In this document: positions 6,301 to 62,854 of the stretch, piece after piece
Layout of the letters: the number at the start of each line of letters is the position of its first letter
Numbering within the stretch: position 1 is the first letter of the stretch
DNA from: an uncultured Alphaproteobacteria bacterium
Lineage (GTDB): Bacteria > Pseudomonadota > Alphaproteobacteria > Rs-D84
Assembly (NCBI GenBank): GCA_947367055.1
Contig: CANBCI010000002.1
Location: forward strand, 78,005 to 142,004
DNA length: 64,000 bases
Reading direction: 5' to 3'
Made by a program: the position numbers and the translations under genes
Notes under the pieces: generated by a model
Told to the model about the DNA's origin: nothing
The model's input: the letters and a program-made list of their open reading frames with translations, nothing else
The model's database searches: none

Positions 6301-9055
6301 CGACCAGATATTTTGCGGCCGAAACCCGTGTTGAAATCGTGGTGCGCACACTGTTGCCGTTTTCACCGTTGCCGCCACGCACCGTCAGATTTAATACATA
6401 TGTTCCATTGCCGATGTTGCCGTCAAAATTTACAGGTATATTGGCCATTCCATTTTCATCCGTGTACACGTCGGGTAAATCAAGTGTGATTTGCTGCGGG
6501 CGTGCCATGCTGTTTTCAGACAATCCCGTTCCGGATATAAAGTTTTCTGTAAAGCGGTATCCCTTGTATTTATCAAATGAAAATGTCACCGGGGTTAAAA
6601 CCGCGTGTGCGGATATTACGCGGTCGGCGGCCGGTGTCCCAAACATGTTGCGCAATGATACATTTGCGGTGATTTGGTCTGGGGAAATCCAGCCCTCATC
6701 GCGGGCGTCGGATATTTTTGCCGTTATTTTCAGATTGTCCGGAACAAATTCTTCGACCCGGAAATTGGTGGTTCCCAATATATCCTGGGGCTTGTTCTTG
6801 GTGTTTAGTGAATAAATGCGCACCGTGTAATCACCGATTGGCGCAGTGGCTGAAATGTCATATTTTACATCAAACATTCCGTCGGCGACGAGTGAAAACG
6901 TGCGTTCCAAAATCGTTCGGCCGCGCGCGTCGTCCATTTCCAGTTTTACCGGTACGCCGTCCAGTTCCGCAAACGATTTGTTTTTAACAATGCCGCCGAT
7001 AATCATGTTTTCACCGGGGCGGTATATGCCGCGGTCCGTGAATATATATGCGTTCATTGGAACCGCGCTGGATGAATATGCGCCGTCGGTTTCAAATTTT
7101 GAATATTCTACGCGCGTATCAAATGTGCCGTCATACGGAATGAATGAAACATCGTTCCCGCGACGCGCGACAAATGCGACGGGTTCGCGTGCGTTTTTAT
7201 ATTCAGACCATGCAAATCGTGGTATGGCGACGCGCCCGTCCGTGTCGGTTTTACCGGTCCAAATCGGATTGCCGTTTCGGCCCAAGACAGATATTTCAAC
7301 GGCGGATTCTGGTGTGCCGGCCGATAAACTGGATACAAACAGTACCGATGAACCGTCATTGTTTATTTTTCTTATTATACCCAAATCCGTCAGCAGGATC
7401 AGGCGCCGGTCGCTGTAATCTGCGTTTGAGCGGGTGCTGCCGGTTTGGACGATAAATATTCCGGTTTTATCGGCCCCGGTCTTGTCCAGATAGTCGCCCA
7501 AATCGATCGACGCATAGTTTGTCCGCTTTACGGATGCGTTTGCGAACGGCACGGTTTTTTGAAACACGACCGACATGTCATATGCGCCGAACGCCCACGA
7601 TTTGAAATCCATTGATTGCGAAAATACATTATATGTCTGCGATATAAGGTGGTTTATTTCCGACGCCTTGACTTTGTATAAATTTACATACGCGTTTTTT
7701 ACGCCCCCGCGCGCCATGATTCCAAGTTTTCTGTCCCCGCCCAGCGACAGCAATGCACCATCGCCCGCAATTTTTACGCTTTTTTCCGGATAGGGTACGC
7801 GCATCACGCGTGCGGCGGAATTTTTCAAATCAAATCCGCCCGCAGATTTTATCCCGTCGTGCACATTGACATAAATATAGCGTTCATCGCCGTCACCCGC
7901 ATCATATGCAAACGCATATTGGTATATTCCGTTTGGTGCGGCAAAGTTTATTGCATCCAATGTCAGTTTTTTTGATTTCGCGATGACGGCGTCCGTCACT
8001 TCGTCCATTTCCCATTTGTGTGTGCGCGTCTTGTCGTCGCCGTTATATTTGGGCAACAGGTATGCGTCAACATTTTTCGTCCATTGTGTGACGCGTGATG
8101 CGCCCGCCGTTGTCGTAATCAAAATCAATTGCTGGGCATTGCCGTCGTTGTCATCGGCCGCGATTGTTTGAATGTCTGAAACCCGAAAAAAATTATCAGC
8201 CGGTTCAATTGTGACCTTGGCATTGGCGGGTTTGGTTGTTGCCGTGCCGGCCGCGGCCGGTATGCGTCCGATTTTCATGCGTACGGTCTGTACGGAATCG
8301 GTAATATCAATCGGGCGGGTTGTTATGACGGCGGTGCGGTCAAATTTATCGAATTTTGCCGAAAAATCGATTTTCTTGCCATCCAGTTCCATTGAAAGCC
8401 GTGAATCAAAATTATCCGTATTGACCGAATAATTAAATGATATAACGGCGGCCGCAATTACTTTTTTGGGCGCCGCGCCGTCCGGGTAAATGTTAAAACT
8501 GTCAATCTTGGCGGTTATGTCGGGCGTTGTAAAAGAAATCCGCCGCATGTCCGGTTTGACATCGTCGTTGAATAAATTCTTGGCAATCTTTACCGTGAAC
8601 TTGGTATCCGCCGGCCAGTTTATATCCGGCGCAAATGATATTGCTCCGCCATAGACGGACCATTTCCCCTTTATAAACGGCGTGATTTTTATTCCGCGCG
8701 CAATATCCGCATCCGTCAGATTCATTTTGAACGCCGGAGTATAGGAACCGTCGGTCGCATAAGATATATATAGTTGTCGGATTGGGTTTAATTCGCGGTT
8801 GTTGTTGACGGCCGGGACATTTGCATCACCGGTCAGTATTGTTGCGTTGTCATCCCGGAATGTGGAAAAAGTTGGCGCGTCCACAGATGCGTGCAGGGAT
8901 GCCCGGGTTGCGTTTGTTTTATACCATGCAACGCCACCACCCAGGGCCAGCAGCGCCATAACCGCGGCGGCGACAAATATTGCCATGCGGCGACGCGTTT
9001 TGATTTGCCCGTTTTTATTTTTTTTGACTTTCTTTTTAACTGAATCGTGTTTCAT
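3320..9055 (-). CDS. bacterial alpha-2-macroglobulin family protein (YfhM-like), thioester-containing
   Basis: 1911 aa, N-terminal signal/anchor, CxEQ thioester motif (NCSEQ), many Ig-like/MG domain repeats; immediately upstream of pbpC. Confidence 0.8.
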   Translation of the reverse strand: MKHDSVKKKVKKNKNGQIKTRRRMAIFVAAAVMALLALGGGVAWYKTNATRASLHASVDAPTFSTFRDDNATILTGDANVPAVNNNRELNPIRQLYISYATDGSYTPAFKMNLTDADIARGIKITPFIKGKWSVYGGAISFAPDINWPADTKFTVKIAKNLFNDDVKPDMRRISFTTPDITAKIDSFNIYPDGAAPKKVIAAAVISFNYSVNTDNFDSRLSMELDGKKIDFSAKFDKFDRTAVITTRPIDITDSVQTVRMKIGRIPAAAGTATTKPANAKVTIEPADNFFRVSDIQTIAADDNDGNAQQLILITTTAGASRVTQWTKNVDAYLLPKYNGDDKTRTHKWEMDEVTDAVIAKSKKLTLDAINFAAPNGIYQYAFAYDAGDGDERYIYVNVHDGIKSAGGFDLKNSAARVMRVPYPEKSVKIAGDGALLSLGGDRKLGIMARGGVKNAYVNLYKVKASEINHLISQTYNVFSQSMDFKSWAFGAYDMSVVFQKTVPFANASVKRTNYASIDLGDYLDKTGADKTGIFIVQTGSTRSNADYSDRRLILLTDLGIIRKINNDGSSVLFVSSLSAGTPESAVEISVLGRNGNPIWTGKTDTDGRVAIPRFAWSEYKNAREPVAFVARRGNDVSFIPYDGTFDTRVEYSKFETDGAYSSSAVPMNAYIFTDRGIYRPGENMIIGGIVKNKSFAELDGVPVKLEMDDARGRTILERTFSLVADGMFDVKYDISATAPIGDYTVRIYSLNTKNKPQDILGTTNFRVEEFVPDNLKITAKISDARDEGWISPDQITANVSLRNMFGTPAADRVISAHAVLTPVTFSFDKYKGYRFTENFISGTGLSENSMARPQQITLDLPDVYTDENGMANIPVNFDGNIGNGTYVLNLTVRGGNGENGNSVRTTISTRVSAAKYLVGFHADSDLSYISKNAARRVNLVALDATATPVAANGLTKKLIRRENLTSLVKDYSGYYKYQTVTRDRIISQTGFDIKKDGAKIDLDTKNSGTYFLQILDADENILANIEYFVAGTENNALTADKSAELELKLNAADYNAGDEITVDITAPYAGAGLITIERDRVYAYKWFRANGTHTSQKIKVPANFEGTGYINVSFVRDINSRDVFTIPYAYAVAPFRANVSKRNISIKLSAPDVVRDNKLVIKYETNKSARMMIFAINTGILQVAKYKTPNPIAHFFQKAALQVETYQILSLLLPEYKVLREFARTGGGDYDGDAGELGAPLTNPFGRRINAPVAFYSGIIDTTANKPGTVEFDIPEYFNGAITVFAVAANDSSMGAAETETLVQSPVIISLAAPTKAAPGDKFEVNAVISNMTERSGTDAMVNATAHAAAPISINGAASTELSVPQGAEKLWTFGANVGDTLGGSAISVTARVMKNGKQLATRTSDATLSIRPITTFETNVKTGMLKSKSETIKKFARDMYADKESVQLLISANASVLMRPLFEYLKTYDYNCSEQLVSRAMPYALADDDAILGTTHAQSAEQISKFINELQNRQNPNGSFNMWPGGNFAPDETGAYITAYAAQFLTMARENGFNVPKNMLSRAIDYLRGYAGENIRNESDAATKAFAIYVITRNEYVTTGYIDSFEEYANKNIKNWESKLMGAYIAASYKMLKQDAHADKLFAKYEQTGHRRFEYYGPFSTSAANDAIYSYLSRKYFGANAFDIDSIREYINSGEFTPFTSAMAIMGLSGGRYDKNDITGITVFANGAPIGTNTASGTLTAQIPHGTEKIEIKCDKCARDLQLFYTIIQSGFPRAARSAENGLEIVREYFDAAGNRVTHGAIGDMITVKISVRARGGAEIVPNVVITDLLPGGLTPLEMSGDVDFYEIREDRVLIFMTATRAPREITYTAQLTAAGQFAIPPIHAASMYNPAINATGKTGETLSVSNATN

Positions 9056-25309: not shown

Positions 25310-28300
25310 ATGATGAAAAAAATAATTTCTTTTATATGTTGTCTGTTTCCGATTGGCGCAAATGCGGCCGATGCGATTGTATATGATTCCACCCACCCGG
25401 GCAGCAGTCATGTCGTCACCGCGGACGGTTTGACGGTAAATAATGTATATGTGGGTGTGACCGATCCGGTGACGGGCGCGCTGGCTGATAATTTTTATGT
25501 CGGCGAAAACGCCAATGCCAGCAAGCGGTTTGATATTGTCGGCACTGCGGGTGGCGCAATTACGGTAAATTCCTTATTAAATATTGCCCAGGACTGGAAC
25601 CTTTCAATCGGCGGCCTGGCCCAGAATCCAATCAATGTGACATTGGGCGTGGACGCAAATGCCGCGGTCAATGCGATTGGCGGGTTGACGCTGCAAAATA
25701 TTGATACGCTCAAAATCGGTGGGCCATTGATTGGGGGTACGGCCGACGCCACAACCGGTGCGGTTGACATTGCGTCGGGCGGCGTGAATATTTCGGCAAA
25801 CACAATTGACGCGGGCGCAATAACAATAAACGGCGGTGGAACCAAACTGGCGCCGCATCAAATTCAGTCAACCGGTAATTTCAAAACCGCGCAATTAAAG
25901 AATAACGGCGGATACACATTTGTAAATGCGGGTTCCATGGATGTTGTGACCACGACCGGGGATGACGGGGCGATATCCGGCGGGTCTGTTGAAAATATGA
26001 ATACGGGCGGAACGCTGAATTTATATTTGGGGGGGGCGTTGAATATTGGCGCGGATTTGGAAAATTCCGGTTCTATGACGATACAGCGCAATGCCGCGGA
26101 CAGTGTTGTTGATGTTGTTGTCGGCGGTACGGTTAAAAATGATTCTGCGTCGGATGCGTCGACATTTGGTACAATGAATATAACGGTTGACTCGCTGCGT
26201 GTTAATGGCGGTACCGGTGGGGATGCGTCATTGGTTAACAAGGGGGATATGTATCTGACCATTAGTGGGGCAACATACCTTGCCAATGGAATTGATTTGT
26301 CGTCCATGGGCGCGGCGAATATATTCTCGTTGGAAACAGGGACGCTGACTATAAACAATATGACGGATTTATTGCACAAGGCCGGAACCGTCAGCATAAA
26401 GGTCACAAATGGCGGAATGACATTTAACGACATTGAAAATGATGCAGAAATGCTGTTGAGTGCAACCCAAGTCAATCTTGCAAAAATTACAAATAACAGC
26501 AATCTAAATATCAGTACAATAAATTCCGGTGATATTACAATTTCGCAGGATATAGAGGCATCCGCAACCGCGAATACAACCATTAACGCGACCGGTAATC
26601 TGCAGGCGGCCGGTGTCGGCAATGCCGGCGTTATGGAATTAACCGGTAAGACCATAAGCGTCTTGGGTGATGTGTCAAATACAGGGCAATCCTTGCAAAT
26701 TTTGGCGACAACGGACACGACCGGCGATATACATATCACCGGCAATGTCACCAATGCCGGCGGCGATAATGCGGGCGCGATGACAATAAATTCGCGCCAG
26801 GTTGAAATTGACGGGGTTTTAACTAGTAACTCGGGAACAACGAATATAATCGCGTCCGACAGCAATGCAAACGGGATAAAAATCGGCTCGGTTGTGACAA
26901 ACGGCGGCGTGTTGAATATGGATGCGCTGGTCGGGGTAAATGTCACGAACGGTGCGAATATATCAAATGGCGCCTTGAATTTTAGTGACAAGACGCATTC
27001 GTTTACGGCGGCCGAATCGATAAATGTCGGTGGTGCGGTTAACGTCGGGGGCGCCGCGGGTACGGCCGCGTCTGCTGGTGATGTCAATATCGCATCCAGC
27101 GGGGTGACAAATTTTGTTATGACATCAACCGGCGGCGTGATAAGCGTTGCGAACGGCATTTCCACGACGGATGACGGCAATTCACGCGGGGCGCAGTTTG
27201 TTGCATCAAACATAATTGTCGGCGAATTGGATGCAACGGATAATACACAGGTCACCAAAGTCAGTGATGTAACCGCAAACAGAAATGGGCGCCTGATATT
27301 CGGCAGCAGCGATTCGTACGCATCCGCCTTGCGGGTCACCGGCGATATGAATGTGAACCAGGGCGGCACGGTTGACCTTTATGTAAACGGGACGACGGTA
27401 TCGGCGCTGAATGTCAATGGATTGCTGCGGGCGCATGGTGCAAATATTACGGCAGACGGTGCAAATGGCATTAACATTGACGCGTCTGGCGCCGGCATAT
27501 GGTTTGGTGCGGCATCCCCCGCGACAAACCCGATTCCGGAACCCACATCCGGGCTGGTGGCCAAGGATACATCCACATTGACGCTTGCAACAACGGCGGA
27601 TGGCGCGGATATAATTGTAAAGGGCTATGTTCTGGCGGGTACGGGCAAGTCGCTGACATTGACATCGGCGGATGAAATAGATATTACGGGAACCGTTTAT
27701 TCAAACGGTGTAATGGTTGCAAATGCGGCCACCGTAGCAAAGTTTGAAAGCCAGATAAACAACACAGGAACGCTGAATGTAAATGCAAAGAGTGTTGACG
27801 CGTATTCCATGAACAACAACGGTTCAACGGCCAGTGCGATAATAACGGCCACCGGCGGTGACATTGTATTCGCTGATACGGTTTCTTCATCAGGTTCCAT
27901 GGCGCTGAATGCGGTGGGCAATAATGTCAAGACCGGTGCGTTTAATGTGAGTGGCGGTACATCCGTTGTCACGGCGTCGGCCTTGGATTCTTATTCAATA
28001 GATGTGACTAACGGTGGTGCGTTAAATCTGAATACGGCAAATGTGACTGTGGCCACAAACGGTCAGTTCTTGGCCAATAACAATATAACCGTTGTTGGCA
28101 ACATGGTCCAGGGCGGTGCGACCACTGGCGCATTGAACCTGACGCAGAACAATACGACGGTTGCCGCGACCAATTTGAATGTTACCGGGGAATTTTTGGC
28201 AAATTCCAATACGGCAACATACAATATCGGCGAAAATATTGGAATCACCGGCGGCATTTTGGTGTCGGGCACCGGGGCCAATGTAACGATGAATGCCAAA

Positions 28301-30577
28301 AATATTTCGACCGAGGCCACAAATGCGGCTGGGGATGTTATAAATGTCGGCAAATTGACGCTGAATGCGACCGAATCGACTGTTTTGGGCGATGTTATAA
28401 ACAATGGCGGCACAATTACATTGAATTCGCCGGTGGCGAATGTGGACAGCTTTTCGGTTAATGCCGGTAACGCGGTGTTGAACGGTGGTGAATTGATTAG
28501 TGCCGGGGCCATTGTCGGCGGTAATCTGCGCCAGTTTTCCAATACGGTCGACGGCAGTGCGGATATTGACATAATGACCGATGATTACAAAATTACATCG
28601 GCCTCGGCCAGTCTGAACAATATTTTACAGGGCAACGGACGGTTGCACCTAAAGACCGGAAAATTGGATGTTGCGGGCAATATTGATGCGACAAATTTGC
28701 GTATCGGGGCGGAATCTGCCGGCAATTGGCTGATTGCCGACATTGGGGGTAATGTTTCAAACAATACCGAATTTGTCGGATTAAAGCATATGAATATCGG
28801 CGGAAACTACTATTTCAATAACAACAGCATGCTGCACGCTGCGATTTTGCCGTACAAGAATGCGACAACCGAAAACAATGAAAGCCCGTATAATTACTGG
28901 TCGACGGTCAGCCTGAATGACGACAGCACATTGGGTAAAATCACAAACGGTGTTAATGGCGAAGCACTGATTGAGGTTAAAAACAAGTTTGTATCCAATA
29001 TCGACCCGTTGCCGGAATCGAATGGAATGCCGCTGCAGAACGGTCATGTTGGCATCGATTTGTTTAGTGTTGTTGACCAGGGCACGGCGATATGGTTGCT
29101 GCATGCGGAAAACGGGTTGGAAGAATTGGGGACAAAAATCCGAAATCTGAATGTTAATTTCTGTAATGCGGATGCAAGTTTGTGCTTTAATTATCTCGAT
29201 TCGTTAAGTGCGGGCGCACTGGGGTATGAAAATTCCCCGGATGAAAAATTGCCGGTGTACATTTCGGTGCGCGATTCGGATGACGACGGCATCGAAGACA
29301 GTTTGTACATCGTGTTTGACCCGCGTTTCGGCGGCCCGGTAGAGGTGTTCAAGATTCAACCAATCGTTGGACGCGACGAAACCCATACCGAGGGTGAATA
29401 TGTGTCCGCCGGCGCACTGGACAACCTGATAGAAGGCCAGCTGTATAACAAAGGTTTTTATAACACAACCCCGATTGAGGCAATACCGCTGATATTCCGC
29501 GACACCAATTTGGCGACAATGGGTGACGAATTGTACAAGCGCATGGAATATTACAACCTAAATCGTGACGGGGCGGGCTTATCGCGCTTTAGCCGCCTGT
29601 TCCAGGTTCATGAATTAGACCAGATTGCGGGCAGCGTCGCATTGAATGAACACACATCGTTCCGCGATTTCGAAGACCGCATGCTGGACGAATTTATATG
29701 GAACCGCAACCGCAATTTGAAAAAGACGTGGCTGGACTTTGATTTCGGCATATTCTCGCAAAAAGTTTCGGATGACAAAACGGTTGACGGCAATCGATTC
29801 AGCGTATTTGGCGGGTTTGATTGGCAATCGTCCCAGACGCTGATTTTGGGATTGGCGGCGCGTGCGTCATATATGTCCGGCAAAAATGACGATTCGTTTA
29901 ATGTCGGGTATCGCCCGGGTGAATTCATTGCCGGTGATGTTGATGTTGATGTCAGTGACACAAACATCGGCGTCGGCGGTTATTTGATGAAAACGCTGGG
30001 GGACAAGATGCGCCTGTATGGAAATGCGTTTTTAGATGTGCATTTGTTGGATGTTTCGCGTGAACAAACATATATTAACGACAAAATCGAGGGTGACGGC
30101 ACGGCATTCAGTTTGGTTTCCGAATGGGGATTGCTGCATGATTGGCTGAACCAGTATATTGTGGGCAATGCGTATGCGCGAATCGGATATAATACGGGCT
30201 TTTCTGTTAAGGAAAAGGTTGGCGGTGACGAGTACATGAAACTGGAATCCGATGGATATATGATATTGACGCCGGGTTATTCGTTGACATTCCAGAAACG
30301 CATTTATCCGTCCGCATGGTTCCAGATTCGTCCGTACGCGTCGGCGGGCATTGAATATGATGTTCTGGGGACCCCGGACAAGGTACAGTATAAATTTGCA
30401 TTGGCGCGCGATTTCACGGATTATGATATAAAGATTGATCCGCTGTGGGCCTATGCGGGGGGCGGCGTGGAAATGCTGTCGGTAAGCGGGTTCCAGGTCG
30501 GCCTGGATTACCGGTACCAGTATAATGCGGATATTCAAATGCATAATATAAAGGTTTCCGCATCGTACAGATTTTAA
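25310..30577 (+). CDS. autotransporter (type Va) adhesin-like protein with beta-helical repeat passenger and C-terminal beta-barrel
   Basis: Signal peptide MMKKIISFICCLFPIGANA; around 1400 aa of G/N/T/V-rich beta-helix repeats; C-terminal ~280 aa with alternating beta-strand pattern ending ...VSASYRF (terminal aromatic). Confidence 0.8.
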   Translation: MMKKIISFICCLFPIGANAADAIVYDSTHPGSSHVVTADGLTVNNVYVGVTDPVTGALADNFYVGENANASKRFDIVGTAGGAITVNSLLNIAQDWNLSIGGLAQNPINVTLGVDANAAVNAIGGLTLQNIDTLKIGGPLIGGTADATTGAVDIASGGVNISANTIDAGAITINGGGTKLAPHQIQSTGNFKTAQLKNNGGYTFVNAGSMDVVTTTGDDGAISGGSVENMNTGGTLNLYLGGALNIGADLENSGSMTIQRNAADSVVDVVVGGTVKNDSASDASTFGTMNITVDSLRVNGGTGGDASLVNKGDMYLTISGATYLANGIDLSSMGAANIFSLETGTLTINNMTDLLHKAGTVSIKVTNGGMTFNDIENDAEMLLSATQVNLAKITNNSNLNISTINSGDITISQDIEASATANTTINATGNLQAAGVGNAGVMELTGKTISVLGDVSNTGQSLQILATTDTTGDIHITGNVTNAGGDNAGAMTINSRQVEIDGVLTSNSGTTNIIASDSNANGIKIGSVVTNGGVLNMDALVGVNVTNGANISNGALNFSDKTHSFTAAESINVGGAVNVGGAAGTAASAGDVNIASSGVTNFVMTSTGGVISVANGISTTDDGNSRGAQFVASNIIVGELDATDNTQVTKVSDVTANRNGRLIFGSSDSYASALRVTGDMNVNQGGTVDLYVNGTTVSALNVNGLLRAHGANITADGANGINIDASGAGIWFGAASPATNPIPEPTSGLVAKDTSTLTLATTADGADIIVKGYVLAGTGKSLTLTSADEIDITGTVYSNGVMVANAATVAKFESQINNTGTLNVNAKSVDAYSMNNNGSTASAIITATGGDIVFADTVSSSGSMALNAVGNNVKTGAFNVSGGTSVVTASALDSYSIDVTNGGALNLNTANVTVATNGQFLANNNITVVGNMVQGGATTGALNLTQNNTTVAATNLNVTGEFLANSNTATYNIGENIGITGGILVSGTGANVTMNAKNISTEATNAAGDVINVGKLTLNATESTVLGDVINNGGTITLNSPVANVDSFSVNAGNAVLNGGELISAGAIVGGNLRQFSNTVDGSADIDIMTDDYKITSASASLNNILQGNGRLHLKTGKLDVAGNIDATNLRIGAESAGNWLIADIGGNVSNNTEFVGLKHMNIGGNYYFNNNSMLHAAILPYKNATTENNESPYNYWSTVSLNDDSTLGKITNGVNGEALIEVKNKFVSNIDPLPESNGMPLQNGHVGIDLFSVVDQGTAIWLLHAENGLEELGTKIRNLNVNFCNADASLCFNYLDSLSAGALGYENSPDEKLPVYISVRDSDDDGIEDSLYIVFDPRFGGPVEVFKIQPIVGRDETHTEGEYVSAGALDNLIEGQLYNKGFYNTTPIEAIPLIFRDTNLATMGDELYKRMEYYNLNRDGAGLSRFSRLFQVHELDQIAGSVALNEHTSFRDFEDRMLDEFIWNRNRNLKKTWLDFDFGIFSQKVSDDKTVDGNRFSVFGGFDWQSSQTLILGLAARASYMSGKNDDSFNVGYRPGEFIAGDVDVDVSDTNIGVGGYLMKTLGDKMRLYGNAFLDVHLLDVSREQTYINDKIEGDGTAFSLVSEWGLLHDWLNQYIVGNAYARIGYNTGFSVKEKVGGDEYMKLESDGYMILTPGYSLTFQKRIYPSAWFQIRPYASAGIEYDVLGTPDKVQYKFALARDFTDYDIKIDPLWAYAGGGVEMLSVSGFQVGLDYRYQYNADIQMHNIKVSASYRF

Positions 30578-35429: not shown

Positions 35430-36698
35430 ATGCACATAAATGAATTAAAGGCAAAATCGCCACAGCAACTGCTGAAAATGGCCGAAGACATGGGGATTGA
35501 AAACCCGGCGCAATTAAATGTTCAACAATTGCGCTTTGCGGTTATGCGCGCGTTCGCCGCAGATAAAAAGGTGACGCTTATCGGCGACGGCGTCTTGGAA
35601 CGCATGCAGGACGGGTTCGGTTTCCTGCGCGCCCCTGAAAGCAATTATTTGGCCGGCCCCGACGATTTGTATGTGTCGCCAAATCTGATTAAAAAATATG
35701 GTCTTAAGACCGGCGATTATATCGAGGGGCTGATTCAGGCACCACAGAACGAATCGGAGCGCTACTTTGCGTTGGAAACGATTGAACGCGTCAACGGTGA
35801 CAAGCCGGAAAAGTTGCGTCACCGTGTGTCTTTTGACGATATGACGCCGCTGTACCCGGACGAACAACTGAAAATGGAAGTACCCGACGACAAGGACAAG
35901 GGACGCAATCTGTCGGCGCGCGTTATTGATTTGATTTCGCCCACCGGCAAGGGGCAGCGTTCCCTTATCGTTGCGCCACCGCGCACCGGTAAAACGGTTA
36001 TGCTGCAAAACATTGCGCATTCAATCGCGACGAATTATCCGGATGTGAAATTGATTGTTCTGCTGATTGATGAACGCCCCGAAGAGGTCACCGATATGCA
36101 GCGCAGCGTCAAGGGCGAGGTTATTTCCAGTACATTTGACGAACCCGCCGCACGCCATATCCAGGTCGCCGAAATGGTTATTGAAAAGGCCAAAAGACTG
36201 GTCGAGGCCGGACAGGATGTCGTAATCTTGCTGGATTCCATAACGCGTTTGGGGCGTGCGTACAACACCTGTGTTCCGTCCAGCGGCAAGGTTTTGACCG
36301 GCGGTGTCGACGCCTATGCGTTGCAGCGGCCAAAGCGCTTTTTCGGTGCGGCCCGTAATATCGAGGGCGGCGGTTCCCTGACGATTATCGCAACGGCATT
36401 GGTCGATACCGGTTCCAAAATGGACGAAGTTATTTTTGAAGAGTTCAAGGGAACTGGAAACAGCGAAATCATTCTGGACCGCAAGTTGTCCGACAAACGT
36501 GTTTATCCGGCGATTGACATTACAAAGTCCGGCACGCGCAAGGAAGACCTGCTGGTGGGCAAGGATAATCTGGCCAAAATGTACGTGCTGCGCCGCATTA
36601 TAAATCCGATGGGCACGTTAGAGGCAATGGAATTCCTGCTGGATAAATTGCGCCTGACAAAGACCAACGAAGATTTCTTTGGGTCAATGAATCAGTAA
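35430..36698 (+). CDS. rho: transcription termination factor Rho
   Basis: N-terminal Rho-N/cold-shock domain, Walker A PPRTGKT, RecA-like core, 422 aa. Confidence 0.95.
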
Positions 36699-36725
36699 AA
36701 AGTCCCCCGAACGGGGGATTTTTAA
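36699..36725 (+). terminator. bidirectional Rho-independent terminator after rho
   Basis: TCCCCCGaacGGGGGA hairpin + T-run. Confidence 0.6.
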
Positions 36726-37168
36726 TTCGTATAAAAACAATTATTGGTGAAATTATATTGGCCGCTGGTGTCATTGGCGACGGTGCCGCTGACGACATAG
36801 CAGGATGTTTTTGCCGTTGCGCCGTTGGCGGATGTTCCGGGGGCGGGGCACGGGGTGCAACCGGTGGTGCCGTTTGTTGATTGACCGTAATATCCCGCGG
36901 CGCATCGGTATGATGTTTTTCGTGTGCAGTTTAATATTGTGCCCGTTGCGGTCACTTTTTCTTGGTAGCCCGGGGTGATGCTGTTCATCCAGTCCGTGCT
37001 GACGCATTCGTCAAGTGTTGCCCCACTGCCGCATGGTTTTAGTTCGCCGGGGCATGTTTCGCCGGCCGCAACGCTTGTTCCATTGCTGCACCTGCATTGA
37101 AGGGTTGCGACACTGTGGGCCGTTGCGGGAATAAAAAGCAGTGACAGCGTCCATATATATTTTTTCAT
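36722..37168 (-). CDS. small secreted cysteine-rich protein (paralog family member A)
   Basis: Signal peptide MKKYIWTLSLLFIPATAHS; 16 Cys; C-terminal block YRCAAGYYGQSTNGTTGCTPCPAPGTSANGATAKTSCY shared with the 59248..59799 product. Confidence 0.5.
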   Translation of the reverse strand: MKKYIWTLSLLFIPATAHSVATLQCRCSNGTSVAAGETCPGELKPCGSGATLDECVSTDWMNSITPGYQEKVTATGTILNCTRKTSYRCAAGYYGQSTNGTTGCTPCPAPGTSANGATAKTSCYVVSGTVANDTSGQYNFTNNCFYTN

Positions 37169-37330
37169 CTGACTTCCTTTTTTTGTGTTCAGAAAAACAT
37201 CAAACCACCAAGTCATTGGTGGTCGGGAAGTTAGAAAAATCATAAAGAAGAATGATCCCGTCGGCCTTTGGGTGCATGTCGCGCCTTGTTGTATAACCAA
37301 CAGCTTCCCGACCGATTAAGTCGGGCAAGT
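37169..37330 (-). promoter_or_regulatory. conserved structured 5' leader, copy A (long-range stem + CACC-N-GGUGG hairpin + U-run)
   Basis: Hairpin ACCACCAagtcatTGGTGGT 37204-37223; long-range stem GTCGGGAAG 37222-37230 with CTTCCCGAC 37304-37312; immediately 5' of the minus-strand Cys-rich gene. Confidence 0.5.
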
Positions 37331-37480
37331 GCGACAAGAAATGCCGCATGTATCGGATTTCGACGCCCTTTTGCAAAGCGCCGCTTCTTTACGGGATTTT
37401 CTAAGTCCCAAACCCACAATCCCTTGCGGATTCAAGTACAGTATAAAATATGCACCCTTTAAACACAACAGGATTTTGAT

Positions 37481-37708
37481 ATGAAATACATTTACGTTGT
37501 AATTGCGTGCGTCGCATTTGTCGCGTTCGCTTATCTTGCCGGGCGCGCCAATGGCGTCCAGCGGTGCAGGGCGGATTGCATCGGTGATGTCGCGCGCATG
37601 CAATCGCAACTAATCAAGCAAGAGGAGAAAATAAATGCGGAAACTCTTAATACCGGTGTCGCTGATATTCGTCGCGTCCTGCGCGCGAAATACACAATCG
37701 CCGAATAA
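37481..37708 (+). CDS. small membrane-anchored protein (i-spanin-like architecture)
   Basis: N-terminal TM helix YIYVVIACVAFVAFAYLAG then charged helical segment; 3' end overlapped in another frame by a lipoprotein ORF. Confidence 0.3.
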   Translation: MKYIYVVIACVAFVAFAYLAGRANGVQRCRADCIGDVARMQSQLIKQEEKINAETLNTGVADIRRVLRAKYTIAE

Positions 37709-37832
37709 TGTCTGTGCGCCGGTTGTTTGCCGGCCAATATATGGACGTGCCGCCGACTGGGATGTAATCAGTGACGATTTGGCGCGAAATATCTATCGGC
37801 ACAATCGGACCTGCGCAGAATATAATAAATAA
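37635..37832 (+). CDS. small Cys/Pro-containing lipoprotein (o-spanin-like), overlapping previous ORF
   Basis: Lipobox-like signal MRKLLIPVSLIFVASC; short mature peptide with Pro and Cys residues; out-of-frame overlap with 37481..37708. Confidence 0.3.
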   Translation: MRKLLIPVSLIFVASCARNTQSPNNVCAPVVCRPIYGRAADWDVISDDLARNIYRHNRTCAEYNK

Positions 37833-40737: not shown

Positions 40738-41136
40738 GGTTTCTCATCCTGGGGTTTGCAGAAAAATTAAACCACCCACAAGGGGGGTGGTTGAATTTTT
40801 GGCGCGCCCTGCAGATTCCCTCGGCATATAAATGCCTGCGGGGAAACCGTGACGGCTCGATTACACTGCGTTAATCTCGCCTACTTGTTTTCGAACCAAG
40901 GTTCTCATCCTGGGGTTTGCAGAAAAATTAAACCACCCACAAGGGGGGTGGTTGAATTTTTGGCGCGCCCTGCAGATTCCCTCGGCATATAAATGCCTGC
41001 GGGGAAACCGTGACGGCTCGATTACACTGCGTTAATCTCGCCTACTTGTTTTCGAACCAAGGTTCTCATCCTGGGGTTTGCAGAAAAATTAAACCACCCA
41101 CAAGGGGGGTGGTTGAATTTTTGGCGCGCCCTGCAG
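40738..41136. repeat. tandem direct repeat, 161-bp unit x ~2.5 copies, each containing the 3'-terminal 15 nt of tRNA-Arg plus its terminator (att-like)
   Basis: Units begin at 40738, 40900 and 41061, are near-identical, and each carries TGGCGCGCCCTGCAG (reverse complement of the tRNA acceptor/T-stem 3' end). The last unit runs into the genuine tRNA-Arg. Confidence 0.85.
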
Positions 41137-41198
41137 GATTCGAACCTGCGACCTGCGGATTAGAAATCCGATGCTCTATCCAGCTGGGCTAAGGGCGC
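41122..41198 (-). tRNA. tRNA-Arg (anticodon UCU)
   Basis: Reverse complement gives GCGCCCT-TA-GCCCAGCTGGATAGAGC-A-TCGGA-TTTCTAA-TCCGC-AGGTC-GCAGGTTCGAATCCTGC-AGGGCGC-G-CCA; anticodon loop UUUCUAA. Confidence 0.8.
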
Positions 41199-42597: not shown

Positions 42598-42750
42598 AGA
42601 TTGAAATTTTGGTTTATAGAGTGCATTATATACCAGAACCCTAATGGGAATTGGGTTCGGGGCTATTGCAGGCCCGGTTTAGTCGGCGCAAACGCGTCGT
42701 TAGATGATATGGCAATACATAGCCTGTATTGTCATGTCCCCGTCATGCAG

Positions 42751-42857
42751 GTCGGGGAGCTGTTGGTTATATAACACGGGAAACCGAAAGGCCGACGGAA
42801 TCACTACTAAACTGATTATGCAATCTCCCCGACCACCCTTAAATGGTGGTCTTTTTT
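42751..42857 (+). promoter_or_regulatory. conserved structured 5' leader, copy B
   Basis: GTCGGGGAG 42751-59 pairs with CTCCCCGAC 42825-33; hairpin ACCACCcttaaatGGTGGT 42832-50; T6 42852-57; 25 nt upstream of the OMP gene start. Confidence 0.5.
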
Positions 42858-42881: not shown

Positions 42882-43517
42882 GTGCGAATTTTTATCTGCA
42901 TGACGGTGATATTTTGCATGATGTCGCACGCGTATGCCGCCGATGGAATGTTTCTTGCATTGCGGTCTGCGCATACTAATGTCGGGGTTAAATATTCCGG
43001 GTACGGCAATCGGGACGATACCGTTTCGTCTTATAAGATTGCAATGGGGGCCGGAATTGATGCAATGGGCTTTGAATTTGAATTTTCCGATATTTCCGGT
43101 GCAAAAATGATTGCCGATTTGCAGGACGGGATTCCTTTGCGCGGCATGGAAAAAAACAATATCAACATCTATTTTTTTAACATAACCCAGGAAACGGAAA
43201 TTTTTACAGATTTTTTTATATTACTGGGGCTGGGGGCGGGCATGGCGAAAAATACCGCGGATGTCGACATAAAACTAGATTTATCCGAATTTGGCGAAAG
43301 TGATGCGTACACTGTTTATGAAAACTCGCATCATGCGCGGACGTTTGCATGGAATGTTTCAGCCGGAATTGGGTATATGATATTTGACGGATTGTCGCTG
43401 GATTTACTTTATAGATATACGGGTATTGGAAAAACAAAATATAAAATTCATTCCGACAGCATAAAAAAAAATTTAAGCATGCATGAAATAATAATCGGTG
43501 CTAGGTTTATGTTTTAA
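42882..43517 (+). CDS. small outer-membrane beta-barrel protein (OmpA-like/8-strand class)
   Basis: GTG start after AAAGGGGGA RBS; signal peptide ending AYAADG; alternating aromatic pattern; C-terminus IIGARFMF. Confidence 0.5.
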   Translation: MRIFICMTVIFCMMSHAYAADGMFLALRSAHTNVGVKYSGYGNRDDTVSSYKIAMGAGIDAMGFEFEFSDISGAKMIADLQDGIPLRGMEKNNINIYFFNITQETEIFTDFFILLGLGAGMAKNTADVDIKLDLSEFGESDAYTVYENSHHARTFAWNVSAGIGYMIFDGLSLDLLYRYTGIGKTKYKIHSDSIKKNLSMHEIIIGARFMF

Positions 43518-57896: not shown

Positions 57897-57923
57897 AAAA
57901 ACCGCCGTTCGGCGGTTTTTTCA
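57895..57923 (+). terminator. bidirectional Rho-independent terminator after prfA
   Basis: ACCGCCGttCGGCGGT hairpin + T6. Confidence 0.6.
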
Positions 57924-58670
57924 GAAGGATATTTTTACGCCGGCCATTACCTCGTGCTTTTTTAGTTCGACATTTGAATCAAAGTGCCGTTCTATGCCGT
58001 TGTTGTTTTTGGCGGCGTTTTCATGATACATTCGGTTTGTGTATTTTACGTTGCCCAGGTCTGTGTATCGATACTCCATTGTCAGGGCGATTGCGTGCGT
58101 AACCGGAATTTCTGCGCCCGCACCAATGTTCCATGACATGTTTCTCTCCTCGTCACGGGTTTCCCACCAGTAGGTGCCGCTGCGGAAATTGTTTTCAGAA
58201 TTTATTATTGTGTATCCGACGCCGATTGTTACAAATGGCATAAAGCGGTTCAATTTGTACCCGTATTTTGCGTTAAGTGCCAATGTTTGCTCGCTGTATT
58301 TGAAATCACGCGTATCACTGTCGTTTGGCATGTTGCCGTCAAAATCAAGTGTGCTGTCGGTCGGGTCAAAGTGGTTTGTTGCCTGGCCATATTGCGCCTC
58401 TATCCCGAATGTTCCATATTTTTGCGTGTCGAAATCATATCCGACCGCGAATATCGGTGACAATTTGTTCCCGTGCGCACTCCAGGATTCGTGCTTGTTG
58501 CCGTCAAATTCGGTCCATGTGCCCTTGATTGATTTTAGTTCTGTGCGACTTTCGTCGACGCGTGTTTGCGACCATGCGATTTTTGGATTGATATAAAACG
58601 CGCTCGCGTGCGCGCCGCCCGCGGCCATAAAGACCGCCAGAGACACGATCATTGTGTTTTTCTTTTTCAT
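57921..58670 (-). CDS. small outer-membrane beta-barrel protein (OmpW/OmpA-like)
   Basis: Start MKKKNTMIVSLAVFMAAGGAHA (signal peptide) after AAGGAG RBS; alternating beta-strand pattern; ends MAGVKISF. Confidence 0.55.
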   Translation of the reverse strand: MKKKNTMIVSLAVFMAAGGAHASAFYINPKIAWSQTRVDESRTELKSIKGTWTEFDGNKHESWSAHGNKLSPIFAVGYDFDTQKYGTFGIEAQYGQATNHFDPTDSTLDFDGNMPNDSDTRDFKYSEQTLALNAKYGYKLNRFMPFVTIGVGYTIINSENNFRSGTYWWETRDEERNMSWNIGAGAEIPVTHAIALTMEYRYTDLGNVKYTNRMYHENAAKNNNGIERHFDSNVELKKHEVMAGVKISF

Positions 58671-58810
58671 TGTTTTTACTCCTTTTTTCGTCAATGAAAA
58701 ACCACCGAAAAAATTCAGGTGGCTGGAGTTTAGTAACAATTCATCAGAAAATTGCGCGGCTTATTTGGCGCAAACAGCGTGTGCTTTATTCGCCGCACTC
58801 CAGCCACTTT
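58671..58810 (-). promoter_or_regulatory. conserved structured 5' leader, copy C
   Basis: Hairpin CCACCgaaaaaattcaGGTGG 58702-22; CTGGAG 58723-28 pairs with CTCCAGCC 58799-58806 (covarying version of the long-range stem); 5' of the minus-strand OMP gene. Confidence 0.5.
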
Positions 58811-59138
58811 CGTGCTCTGGAGGGTATTATGCGCCATCTCTGGCGTCTGATGATATGGGTTACTAAGCCCAACGACAAGAATCCTGCCCCTGTCGTCGCG
58901 ATATATTAAATCATTGCGTTGTGCAAAAGTCAATTTTTATATTTGTTTTTTGTGTGCCGGGTTGTGGCGGCTGCGGATTGCGGTTGCATTGATTGGTTTT
59001 ATATGGTAAACTAAAAAGCGTTGACGGGTGTTCCGTCGACGGGGTGTGGAAACCCTTCGTAAGCGTCGAATTTGTTCCTGTGGCGCGCAATTTGCGCCAA
59101 TTTTAACATATTCGATGAAAATTACTCCTGGCCATTGG

Positions 59139-59227
59139 GTCGGGAGGGTCGCCGAATATAATAATACGCGACACGATTCTTACGATTGTTTCCAACCTCC
59201 CGACCACCAATAGAATTGGTGGTTTTT
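59139..59227 (+). promoter_or_regulatory. conserved structured 5' leader, copy D
   Basis: GTCGGGAGG 59139-47 pairs with CCTCCCGAC 59196-204; hairpin CCACCAAtagaaTTGGTGG 59204-22; T5 59223-27; 20 nt upstream of ATG 59248. Confidence 0.5.
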
Positions 59228-59247
59228 GCAAAACAAGGGTGGGAAGC

Positions 59248-59799
59248 ATGAGAAAAATATTTGTCCTGGGTATTTTTATAATCGGCGTGAATGCGGCGTT
59301 TGCAGCGGAGGAATGTCCAAACTGCCTGAATTTTAAGCCGGCGCATTGCGCCAATTACAATGTAAAGGTGGCGCCAAATTACGTTGATCATTTTTATGAC
59401 TGCACAACTTGTGATTCCGGTTATAAGATTGCGTTTGATTATGTGGAAACCGGTGACGATATTATGCCCACGATGAGTTATGGTTATTGCGTAGAGGACT
59501 GCAAGGGGTGTACGAACTGTAATGATATTGGGTGGACTGTGGCAAATGCCGGCTATCACGTCTATAAAACCGCTAGTTGCAAATGCAATACGTGCGTGTA
59601 CACCAGCAAATACAGGTGTGCCGGAAACTATTTCGGCAGTTCTACAAATGGTACCAGCGGATGTTCGCCATGTCCGGAGGGTGGATTGTCGGCGCCGGGC
59701 TCAACCGCAAAAACGGCCTGTTACAAACCGGCCGGGTCAACGGGCGCGGATTCCTCCGGGTCTTATACATATACCGGCACATGTGTTTGGCAAAATTAA
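59248..59799 (+). CDS. small secreted cysteine-rich protein (paralog family member D)
   Basis: Signal peptide MRKIFVLGIFIIGVNAAFA; 20 Cys; C-terminal block YRCAGNYFGSSTNGTSGCSPCPEGGLSAPGSTAKTACY paralogous to the 36722..37168 product. Confidence 0.5.
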   Translation: MRKIFVLGIFIIGVNAAFAAEECPNCLNFKPAHCANYNVKVAPNYVDHFYDCTTCDSGYKIAFDYVETGDDIMPTMSYGYCVEDCKGCTNCNDIGWTVANAGYHVYKTASCKCNTCVYTSKYRCAGNYFGSSTNGTSGCSPCPEGGLSAPGSTAKTACYKPAGSTGADSSGSYTYTGTCVWQN

Positions 59800-61712: not shown

Positions 61713-62006
61713 TTAATTTAATGGACATATGCTTATATATTCATATGTTCCTGTATTGTCCGAATAAGGTGTGTTTTGTGGTGCGAACATGGCGCATTTT
61801 ACCGCCGAAGATGTTGTTGCCAGGCATGATGTGGCGGCGCCCTGCCCAATGGCTGTATATCCTGTGGGGCATGTGTCGGCCGCGATGGTTAAAAGGTTGT
61901 TTTCTGTTTTTATCATACCGTTTGGGCAATTTTCTGATGGTGGTGCCGCAAAAGAAGCGTTTATACAAATAATAAAAAAAGTAAGATAACTTATTGTTTT
62001 ATTCAT
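61713..62006 (-). CDS. small secreted Cys-containing protein (family member)
   Basis: Signal peptide MNKTISYLTFFIICINASFA; motif CPTGYTAIGQGAATSC resembling CAAGYYGQSTNGTTGC of paralogs; terminator hairpin at 61660-61705 in gene orientation. Confidence 0.4.
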   Translation of the reverse strand: MNKTISYLTFFIICINASFAAPPSENCPNGMIKTENNLLTIAADTCPTGYTAIGQGAATSCLATTSSAVKCAMFAPQNTPYSDNTGTYEYISICPLN

Positions 62007-62019
62007 GTTTTTTCCTTTT

Positions 62020-62499
62020 TTAAAAATATTGTATGCTGTTAGCGCTATCAATGGTTTCCTTGTATTTGTTAACCATTGTTGAATACCTTGAATTGTCGGC
62101 ACATCTGTTTGCGCAGTCTTTTAAGCAGGCATCAGTTGTTGCATAGTTTGTGCTCCAACTAGAACTGTATCCGACAGAAACCCAGTTTGAAAGTGCCGGC
62201 CATGTCATTTTGCACCAGCAGTATATGTTTGATGTGGCCGGGTACATGGTTAGGCTTGTTGCGGTTGAGCCGGCTGCTGCGGTGCTGCCCTTGGTGGCGC
62301 TGCATGCCGCGATTCCCTGTATTCTTCGTTGGGTTTGGCTGCCTACGGGAATTTGTATAATCCAGTCGGAACCAGATTTAAGTATTATTTGTTGTGAGTT
62401 CACATTGTCTGGCGGGGTTAAATCTATGCATTCAATGGCGGCAATTGCGGGTTGGGTCGATAAGAATGCTATTGGTAGCATTGTTAATAGGTGTTTCAT
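62020..62499 (-). CDS. small secreted Cys-containing protein
   Basis: Signal peptide MKHLLTMLPIAFLSTQPAIA; 8 Cys; preceded by leader copy E and GGAGGA RBS. Confidence 0.45.
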   Translation of the reverse strand: MKHLLTMLPIAFLSTQPAIAAIECIDLTPPDNVNSQQIILKSGSDWIIQIPVGSQTQRRIQGIAACSATKGSTAAAGSTATSLTMYPATSNIYCWCKMTWPALSNWVSVGYSSSWSTNYATTDACLKDCANRCADNSRYSTMVNKYKETIDSANSIQYF

Positions 62500-62620
62500 G
62501 ATAAAATCCTCCGTTATGCTTGTTAATAAAAACCACCGTAAAATCAGGTGGTTGGAGGTTCGAAACTATAATCTGGTATAGCGGGTTTATTCGTTTGATA
62601 TTACACCCCCTCCAACCTAT
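62500..62620 (-). promoter_or_regulatory. conserved structured 5' leader, copy E
   Basis: Hairpin CCACCgtaaaatcaGGTGG 62533-51; GTTGGAGGTT 62551-60 pairs with CCTCCAACC 62609-17 (covarying stem); A-run 62526-32 gives U-run in gene orientation. Confidence 0.5.
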
Positions 62621-62854
62621 TTTCAGATTGGAGTTTTGTTTTTATATCCGCTTTGTCGGATATCCAGATTCAGAGGTTTCGACGCCCCAATGCAAAAACA
62701 CTTCGCATCAGTCAAAGTATAGCGCATTTCTTGATTGTTAATCAAGGATATAATGCAAATCCAATGGGATTTGTTATATAAAACGCTTGAATTTATGCGC
62801 GATTATGTCTAAAGTCATCATTGATTTAATTTTTTTAACCCATAGGAATAAAAA

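Follow-up and report, generated by a model that had tools for sequence, protein, structure and literature searches.

A large family of cysteine-rich proteins in uncultured gut Alphaproteobacteria is linked to a structured and possibly switching RNA leader

Two small genes in a 64,000-nucleotide (nt) stretch of DNA from an uncultured alphaproteobacterium (contig CANBCI010000002.1 of assembly GCA_947367055.1; the whole stretch is hereafter called the window) are paralogs in a large, unnamed family of cysteine-rich proteins found in uncultured Alphaproteobacteria of animal guts. We refer to them as gene A (36722..37168, minus strand) and gene B (59248..59799, plus strand). A family gene stands alone, as a unit made up of a sigma-70-like promoter, a structured leader of ~230 nt, a Shine-Dalgarno (SD) sequence, the open reading frame (ORF), and a terminator. 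We judge it roughly 60% probable that these are exported envelope proteins with a variable N-terminal half, and that their genes are co-regulated by the leader acting as an RNA switch. Neither the family nor the leader appears to have been described in Pfam, NCBIfam, or Rfam, or in the literature open to search, and our literature searches on the family and its host organisms found nothing relevant.

The original prediction, made from the letters of the window, placed ORFs at the positions of genes A and B and quoted a peptide from each. Both ORFs are present, encoding 148 and 183 amino acids (aa), and both peptide strings occur exactly in the translations. The ATG of gene A is preceded by an AAGGAAG SD sequence. 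The N-termini of A and B are basic and then hydrophobic, end in an AxA-like site, and so resemble Sec signal peptides, as had been claimed; read by eye, the putative cleavage falls at MKKYIWTLSLLFIPATAHS|V in A and at MRKIFVLGIFIIGVNAAFA|AE in B. The claimed common C-terminal block was likewise recovered: over the C-terminal 82 residues the two proteins share 39 identities (48%; E 2e-22 in composition-adjusted BLASTP). Cysteine is less abundant than the 16 to 20 residues first ascribed to both proteins, as A has 11 and B has 17. Gene A is atypically short for the family and is without ~45 residues of the N-terminal module. In an alignment of 44 family sequences that includes A and B (A3), cysteine positions are invariant or nearly so, and the similarity of A and B is therefore not one of G/S/T composition devoid of cysteine spacing, the outcome that the original prediction had named as fatal to its own claim. 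When searched against the six-frame ORFs of the window, the family hidden Markov model (HMM) found only two members, A (1.4e-44) and B (1.8e-60). Gene A is marked as a single-gene unit by a terminator-like hairpin 3' of it (36703..36718, minus strand), in which a T run comes after TCCCCCGTTCGGGGGA. Gene B lies upstream of the genes for shikimate kinase and MscL, as family genes do elsewhere, and the neighbors of the leaders are chromosomal housekeeping genes (rho, aroK/mscL, leuS, and prfA).

That A and B belong to a multigene family was part of the original prediction, and it proved true on a large scale. Searched exhaustively against 1.84 billion representatives of clusters at 50% identity, the family profile returned 1195 proteins at E <= 1e-3, 603 at E <= 1e-10, and 82 at E <= 1e-30; a word-indexed homology search, which found only 12 relatives, greatly understates the family by comparison. 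The best 150 listed relatives are 149 to 322 aa long (mostly ~180 to 225 aa), none of them carries a precomputed Pfam domain, and those with a name are all called "hypothetical protein". A scan of one genome per Genome Taxonomy Database (GTDB) species yielded 143 encoded relatives, of which 80 family loci from 33 assemblies were kept, with up to at least seven loci in one assembly. The source assemblies are nearly all metagenome-assembled genomes (MAGs) labelled Alphaproteobacteria, Rickettsiales, or Candidatus Enterousia. They come from gut-type or termite samples, and the record titles include human gut, chicken, roe-deer cecum, and rabbit ("Lapin"). Two contigs with a family gene are assigned elsewhere, one (L025) to a bin of Bacteroides fragilis and the other (L033) to a Muribaculaceae MAG; both are probably mis-binned alphaproteobacterial contigs, and the Rho of L025 is 96% identical to that of the window. 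The host group, which includes Candidatus Enterousia and is widespread in humans, mice, poultry, ruminants, and termites, is known from MAGs only according to the records and literature that we retrieved, and we found almost nothing on its biology. Within this group the family is the largest unannotated family of putatively exported proteins.

A typical member has 170 to 225 aa and comprises a putative Sec-type signal peptide, a fast-evolving cysteine-rich N-terminal region (often with C..C..GY), and a conserved C-terminal domain of ~95 aa with the consensus W...GYE.K....C.C..C.....YRCAxGYYG..xNG..GC..CP..G.S.AG.....C...G....D..G...Y...CYY.N. Across the 44 sequences, the mean frequency of the top residue is 0.38 to 0.44 in the signal peptide and N-terminal part and 0.60 to 0.74 in the C-terminal part, where cysteines are invariant. 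After the signal peptide the cysteine count is odd in 40 of the 44 members, typically 19, and one cysteine may be free or engaged in intermolecular bonds. Several members have the last cysteine displaced by three residues (NCYYxN as against NSYYCx), and in others C7 and C8 each have an additional cysteine as immediate neighbor (CC...CC). Lipoprotein status was considered and rejected, as in most members no lipobox surrounds the cysteine that follows the signal peptide.

The conserved YRCAxGYYG..C..CP..G.S.AG....C block is, as far as its sequence indicates, a divergent Ephrin_rec_like (TNFR-type) module. Scanned singly, 3 of the 44 members matched PF07699 (Ephrin_rec_like, formerly GCC2_GCC3). 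The relative P0023 scored 24.4 bits over residues 132 to 168, above the curated gathering cut-off of 23.1 bits, and another, P0033, scored 20.2 bits, under the cut-off. Because the match of P0023 falls exactly on the CAxGYYG...GC..CP..G...AG....C block, the core of the block would be a divergent module of the TNFR/Ephrin type. A and B themselves gave no match to PF07699 at E <= 1, yet both have its spacing, C-x2-G-x-Y ... C-x2-C-P-x-G ... C, as C89AAGYYG...GC104TPC107PAPG...C123 in A and CAGNYFG...GCSPCPEGG...C in B, and these columns are invariant or near-invariant in the 44-sequence alignment. With that alignment as input, AlphaFold2 predicts a beta-rich domain at an overall predicted local distance difference test (pLDDT) score of 82; pLDDT is at least 85 in each 10-residue block of residues 51 to 148 and exceeds 95 for most of residues 81 to 148. 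Comparison of the family profile with PDB sequences gave nothing real, and its single match, to an antibody complementarity-determining region (YYCARGYYGSS), was dismissed.

The second element that unites the family is its leader, which we located by regular expression and then with a covariance model (R1). A model match lies directly upstream, on the same strand, in 66 of the 80 family loci, and a family gene follows 54 of the 62 leaders found by regular expression. In alignments, a TTG.../TATAAT promoter-like pair precedes a 9-bp 5'-terminal hairpin (H1) rich in compensatory changes. Another small hairpin comes next, then the conserved GCGUCGGAAUA and a hairpin of GGCGCGC/GCGCC that carries a U run; an A-rich stretch leads on to a segment that we call X. 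The A-rich stretch 5' of X is itself conserved as GACGAAAAACAAA. The 3' module of the leader folds, according to RNAalifold over 48 leaders, as a three-way junction in which helix P1 encloses P2 and P3; each of the three helices is 96 to 99% paired and contains compensatory changes. For the module as a whole, 97.1% of cells are paired, and 10 pairs and 64 cells show two-sided changes; partners slid along the alignment are only 25 to 50% paired. An invariant CCACC/GGUGG hairpin and U run follow, 20 to 35 nt before the start codon. GGUGGUUUU is invariant in 48 to 50 leaders, and in leader A a scan found the hairpin at 37224..37203. Neither the CCACC/GGUGG stem nor its UUUU ever varies in these leaders (alignments A4 and A5), and the loop varies freely.

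Three segments of the leader are mutually complementary: X (CUCCUGA), X' (GGUCAGGAGG, which mimics an SD sequence), and X2 (CCUCCUGACC, an anti-SD sequence). X' pairs with X2 to make P1, and the alternative helix X:X' is 91% paired, with compensatory changes in 5 of its 8 pairs. X2 is in addition complementary to the SD region of the gene that it precedes, typically as CAACCUCCUG against CAGGAGAUUG, and the two co-vary, as CUUCC/GGAAG before gene A, CCUCC/GGAGG before the ORF that begins at 62499, and ACUCC/GGAGU before a gene for an outer-membrane protein (OMP). The X2:SD helix is 72% paired as against at most 44% when slid. In the minimum free energy (MFE) folds of leaders A and B (z -3.9 and -5.8, respectively), X:X' forms and X2 is at the same time paired, around the hairpin, with the SD region. 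The leader combines the features by which an attenuator or switch is recognized, a hairpin and U run upstream of an ORF and mutually exclusive helices that covary.

The original prediction had spoken of three genes sharing a conserved structured leader under common control. We find five copies in the window: before A, before B, before the operon that begins at 62499, and before two genes for OMP beta-barrels. The shared leader itself is upheld by covariation and would imply common control. Leader A (37169..37433, minus strand; 34.8 bits) is a divergent variant with X at 37320-37329, X' at 37304-37313, X2 at 37221-37230, the hairpin and U run at 37203-37224, and the SD sequence GGAAG at 37173-37177; its promoter-like -35 (TTGTGT) and -10 (TATACT) elements lie at 37463-37468 and 37440-37445. 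Leader B (59019..59247, plus strand; 109 bits) follows promoter-like elements at 58984-58989 (-35) and 59007-59012 (-10). It comprises H1 (59020-59040), a second hairpin H2 (59041-59056), GCGTCG (59063-59068), a third hairpin H3 with a T run (59082-59104), X (59125-59133), X' (59137-59148), P2 and P3 (59148-59189), X2 (59196-59205), the hairpin and U run (59204-59227), and the SD region (59235-59246). The leader of the 62499-61713 operon (62500..62709, minus strand) matches the covariance model at 62526-62659 with 77.9 bits, and its promoter-like elements are at 62740-62745 (-35) and 62716-62721 (-10). A 3' module at 58695..58848 (minus strand, 65 bits) precedes an OMP beta-barrel gene of 249 aa (57921..58670, minus strand) with OMP_b-brl and OmpA_membrane matches. 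The fifth copy, a 3' module of the same variant type as leader A (42723..42856, plus strand; 25.8 bits, E 1.7e-4), precedes an OMP-like gene of 211 aa (42882..43517, plus strand) that starts with GTG, ends in ...ARFMF, and weakly matches the Rickettsia Adr adhesin subfamily.

A scan of metagenome contigs for the exact X2-hairpin pattern, independent of any protein, widened this picture. Among the 91 leaders that it found, 43 stand before family genes, 40 before other ORFs, and 8 before no callable ORF. A crude and deliberately strict heuristic flags signal peptides in 54 of 78 distinct leader-linked products and in 25 of the 37 distinct products outside the family; by eye, most of the other leader-linked ORFs have a signal-peptide-like N-terminus and most are cysteine rich. 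Divergent family-like proteins are among these other products, as are a protein with clear Ephrin_rec_like repeats (38.9 bits) and one that matches YadA_anchor (35.8 bits). A second recurring family, of ~120 aa with a putative signal peptide and the cysteine-rich pattern CCCPTG.TG...CPDGW...TD.KGTYTQEYGTC, lies downstream of leaders L090, L100, L106, L111, L126, L147, L149, L152, and L169 and has no relation to the main family that profile comparison could detect. As the products under the leader are mostly of types that look exported, the leader would mark genes for envelope or secreted proteins, and the data point to a jointly controlled cell-envelope protein set.

Family genes keep their chromosomal slots yet diverge far faster than their neighbors. 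Beside rho, A and the corresponding gene of the closest genome (L007) are 94% identical, but A is only 32 to 38% identical to same-slot genes in genomes whose Rho is 96% identical; upstream of aroK-mscL, B is 39% identical to a same-slot gene where SKI is 86% and MscL 72% identical. The diversifying family of the original prediction therefore stands as far as rapid divergence is concerned; for the antigenic variation that it thought possible we found no sign of a mechanism, in that no invertible or phase-variable elements were seen. The ratio of nonsynonymous to synonymous substitution rates (dN/dS) in the sole close ortholog pair of A is 0.33, compared with 0.012 for rho, which indicates relaxed, not positive, selection in that pair. 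In the same comparison (window 35430..37440 against L007), the dS of A is 0.096, sixfold lower than the 0.57 of adjacent rho, and the leader is identical at 262 of 272 positions; recent exchange of a leader-gene cassette or constraint on synonymous sites could account for this.

From these results we propose the following scheme. The proteins would be exported to the periplasm, folded oxidatively into a compact, beta-rich disulfide knot, and then become abundant proteins of the envelope, associated with the outer membrane or exposed at the surface; the conserved C-terminal domain would serve as scaffold or attachment and the variable N-terminal half as the diversifying face. Surface exposure and host interaction are inferred from the types of genes that share the leader, OMPs and a YadA-anchor protein. 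The leader would act as a cis-acting switch or attenuator that co-regulates genes for secreted and surface proteins. Covarying X:X' and X':X2 helices, together with the X2:SD pairing of the MFE folds, lead us to infer a two-state regulator: in state 1, X:X' and X2:SD would form and mask the ribosome-binding site (RBS), and in state 2, X':X2 would form as P1 and leave it free. If the leader attenuates in cis, transcripts should have 3' ends at the GGUGGUUUUU run, with variable read-through.

Several observations weigh against this scheme. On the side of the leader, 23 of 52 MFE folds contain X2:SD and only 3 of 52 contain P1; blocking X raises P1 to 27 of 52 leaders but does not consistently free the SD sequence. 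A first round of constrained folding was uninformative, as the constraints did not force P1, and overall the thermodynamic modelling of the 52 leaders lends the switch modest support. The invariance of the CCACC/GGUGG stem, unusual for a plain terminator, suggests recognition by a sequence-specific factor that has no place in the switch model. On the side of the protein, A and B had no match in scans of Pfam, NCBIfam, or PHROGs, and Foldseek searches of the AlphaFold2 model against PDB (twice) and BFVD returned nothing at E <= 0.001. The TNF receptor 1tnr_R was among the weak matches (E 2.1), and the TNFR-type assignment accordingly depends on the sequence matches of relatives. No lipobox, beta-barrel, or known sorting signal is seen in the family proteins, their function is argued from association, the scheme does not account for the odd cysteine count, and selection on the one close ortholog pair is relaxed.

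The most probable alternative, though we consider it unlikely, is that the proteins remain in the periplasm or line the outer membrane from inside, in a structural, chaperone-like, metal-related, or redox-related role, that they are neither exposed nor of antigenic relevance, and that the variability of their N-terminal half reflects relaxed constraint. A putative Sec signal peptide is the only targeting signal seen, there is neither a surface-sorting motif nor an adjacent secretion gene, and a dN/dS of 0.33 in the close ortholog pair fits relaxed constraint. Against this, the leader also stands before OMP beta-barrels, the YadA-anchor adhesin, and large Ephrin_rec_like repeat proteins, and it is exposed proteins that more typically have many paralogs in a genome and diverge fast.

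Rather less probable is that the leader is an independent, trans-acting small RNA (sRNA) of the sRNA-Xcc1 type, or a passive 5' untranslated region (UTR) that stabilizes the mRNA without switching. A terminator-like hairpin closes the element, its 5'-terminal hairpin resembles ompA-type stabilizers, and the thermodynamic support for switching is weak. At the gathering threshold Rfam found tRNAs only, in the window and in 20 related loci, and none of its ligand or aptamer families matched the leader. In short scans, though, sRNA-Xcc1 (RF02221) gave full-length matches to the leaders of A, B, and D (the first gene of the 62499-61713 operon) and to that of L013, at E 1e-4 to 2.6e-6. The scores of these four (35.4, 37.4, 42.0, and 42.5 bits) are all under the gathering score of 53, and most leaders had no RF02221 match in a 65-kb scan; we treat the resemblance as a lead and not as membership. 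sRNA-Xcc1 was detected as an 88-nt species in Xanthomonas (PMC2996969), which favors the independent-RNA reading. However, it is also reported from Xanthomonas integron cassettes upstream of symE (bioRxiv 10.1101/2025.06.18.660453), a position compatible with a leader-like role. Our element, moreover, is always co-oriented with its gene and 20 to 35 nt from the start codon, which leaves no room for a second promoter; X2 is complementary to the SD region of the very gene that it precedes and varies in step with that region; and there is covariation in X:X' as well as in X':X2. Near the leaders we saw neither an integrase nor attC, nor any integron, transposon, or plasmid context.

We regard as very improbable the idea that the family proteins are secreted antagonistic peptides or toxins, bacteriocin- or defensin-like, directed at competitors or host cells. 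They are small, cysteine rich, multicopy, and rapidly diverging, and they carry putative signal peptides, all as such a role would have it, but no immunity, processing, or transporter genes adjoin them. The genes lie alone among rho, leuS, prfA, and aroK, structural OMPs stand behind the same leader, and PHROGs, Pfam, and NCBIfam gave no toxin match (a PADLOC search was not made). That the similarity of A and B is a compositional artefact or that the ORFs are pseudogenes, as the 45 to 54% of G/S/T/A/N in their mature parts might suggest, is effectively refuted by the composition-adjusted BLASTP score, the invariant cysteine columns, the hundreds of intact homologs that keep promoter, leader, and terminator, and the ortholog of A that is 94% identical at a dN/dS of 0.33.

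Beyond the envelope family and its switching leader as we read them, the window contains two further small genes under a common leader, which the original prediction had drawn into the family on the strength of a CPTGY..GQG...C motif in the first and of its tandem position with the second. Gene C (61713..62006, minus strand; 97 aa, with a putative signal peptide) starts 13 nt after gene D (62020..62499, minus strand; 159 aa, with a putative signal peptide and 7 cysteines), and the two probably form one operon. Neither assignment survived. For gene C, the match to the family HMM was not significant (E 0.66 in hmmsearch), hhalign paired only its last 22 residues with the family profile at a probability of 28%, and a seven-sequence alignment of gene C with leader-linked ~120-aa proteins gave a nonsignificant hhalign result against the family. 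BLASTP of gene C against the ~120-aa family was likewise nonsignificant (E 0.03). We therefore rejected gene C as a divergent family member and left it as an orphan whose C-terminal tail seems to bear only a weak resemblance to the family. Gene D is not a member either; it is absent from the family HMM matches, and the signal peptide alone is common to both in hhalign.

Other features of the window stand apart from these subjects. Between leader A and an arginase-like gene, two small ORFs overlap at 37481..37832 (plus strand). One encodes 75 aa with an N-terminal transmembrane segment and occupies the same position in L007, L016, and L025 (47 to 89% identity); the product of the other is a lipoprotein of 65 aa with a match to PHROG 1275, "Rz-like spanin" (E 8.8e-8), and we noticed no further phage genes nearby. 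At 40741..41141 lie 2.5 copies of a 161-bp repeat at 99% identity, an array that overlaps the 3' end of tRNA-Arg(TCT) (41122..41198, minus strand). Each copy has a CCACCCCCCTTGTGGGTGG hairpin, and the copies may have been left behind by repeated integration at this tRNA. There are also two very long ORFs, one of 1911 aa (3320..9055, minus strand) and one of 1755 aa (25310..30577, plus strand).

The leader offers a way to predict, from sequence alone, which surface proteins uncultured organisms have. It is a candidate for a new RNA switch, it suggests a cis-regulatory reading of the poorly understood sRNA-Xcc1 family, and it accompanies a family tied to a eukaryote-type cysteine-rich module. 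A bolder extension, which we find doubtful but worth stating, is that the leader, distantly related to sRNA-Xcc1, represents a class of its own among cis-regulatory RNA switches. It would sense a signal or factor and turn on and off, in these gut bacteria, a whole "surfaceome" made up of OMPs, adhesins of the YadA type, proteins with Ephrin_rec_like repeats, and dozens of fast-diverging cysteine-rich paralogs; the paralogs would be a bacterial counterpart of the variable, protease-resistant coats of gut protists, built on a TNFR/Ephrin-type module. If the leader is such a switch, sRNA-Xcc1 might also be a terminated leader and not a trans-acting sRNA.

Among known regulatory RNAs, leaders that sequester the SD sequence with an anti-SD sequence include translational riboswitches, RNA thermometers, and the ompA-type stabilizing 5' UTR. 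The present leader shares with them a CCUCC anti-SD sequence opposite the SD sequence, alternative helices, a 5'-terminal hairpin, and a hairpin with a U run before the RBS; unlike them, it serves a regulon of unrelated secreted-protein genes and not one pathway. It has in common with sRNA-Xcc1 a G-rich P1 around two hairpins whose loops are AAUA-rich, and after these an ACC and a U run. In the leader, however, this module is the 3' third of ~230 nt, alongside further conserved hairpins and the X/X'/X2/SD complementarity, and the host clade and downstream genes differ.

Among known proteins, the family block aligns to positions 13 to 48 of the PF07699 profile, but PF07699 proteins carry tandem repeats whereas family members are small, stand-alone bacterial proteins with a single module, set within a larger domain whose W..GYE.K beta-hairpin and D..G..Y..CYY.N tail have no known counterpart. 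The chlamydial proteins OmcA and OmcB are cysteine-rich outer-membrane complex proteins. The family resembles them by analogy, as putatively exported cysteine-rich envelope proteins alongside OMPs, without sequence similarity. Its odd cysteine count would allow intermolecular disulfide cross-links; cross-linking to the two leader-linked OMPs of the window was rejected, as their mature parts contain no cysteine. Giardia variant-specific surface proteins (VSPs) and ciliate surface antigens are multigene cysteine-rich surface proteins of gut protists, and disulfide-rich coats resist proteases in the gut. Our family is like these coats in its many paralogs, in modules of the CXXC or GCC type, in a C-terminal part that is conserved and an N-terminal part that varies, and in the gut habitat; the bacterial proteins, by contrast, are ~10 times smaller and without a membrane anchor, we found no evidence of the mutually exclusive expression or switching known from protist coats, and the likeness is one of analogy. 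Measured against these systems, the family is a variant of the TNFR/Ephrin-type cysteine-rich module, and the leader is a variant of the anti-SD/terminator leader with an sRNA-Xcc1-like junction.

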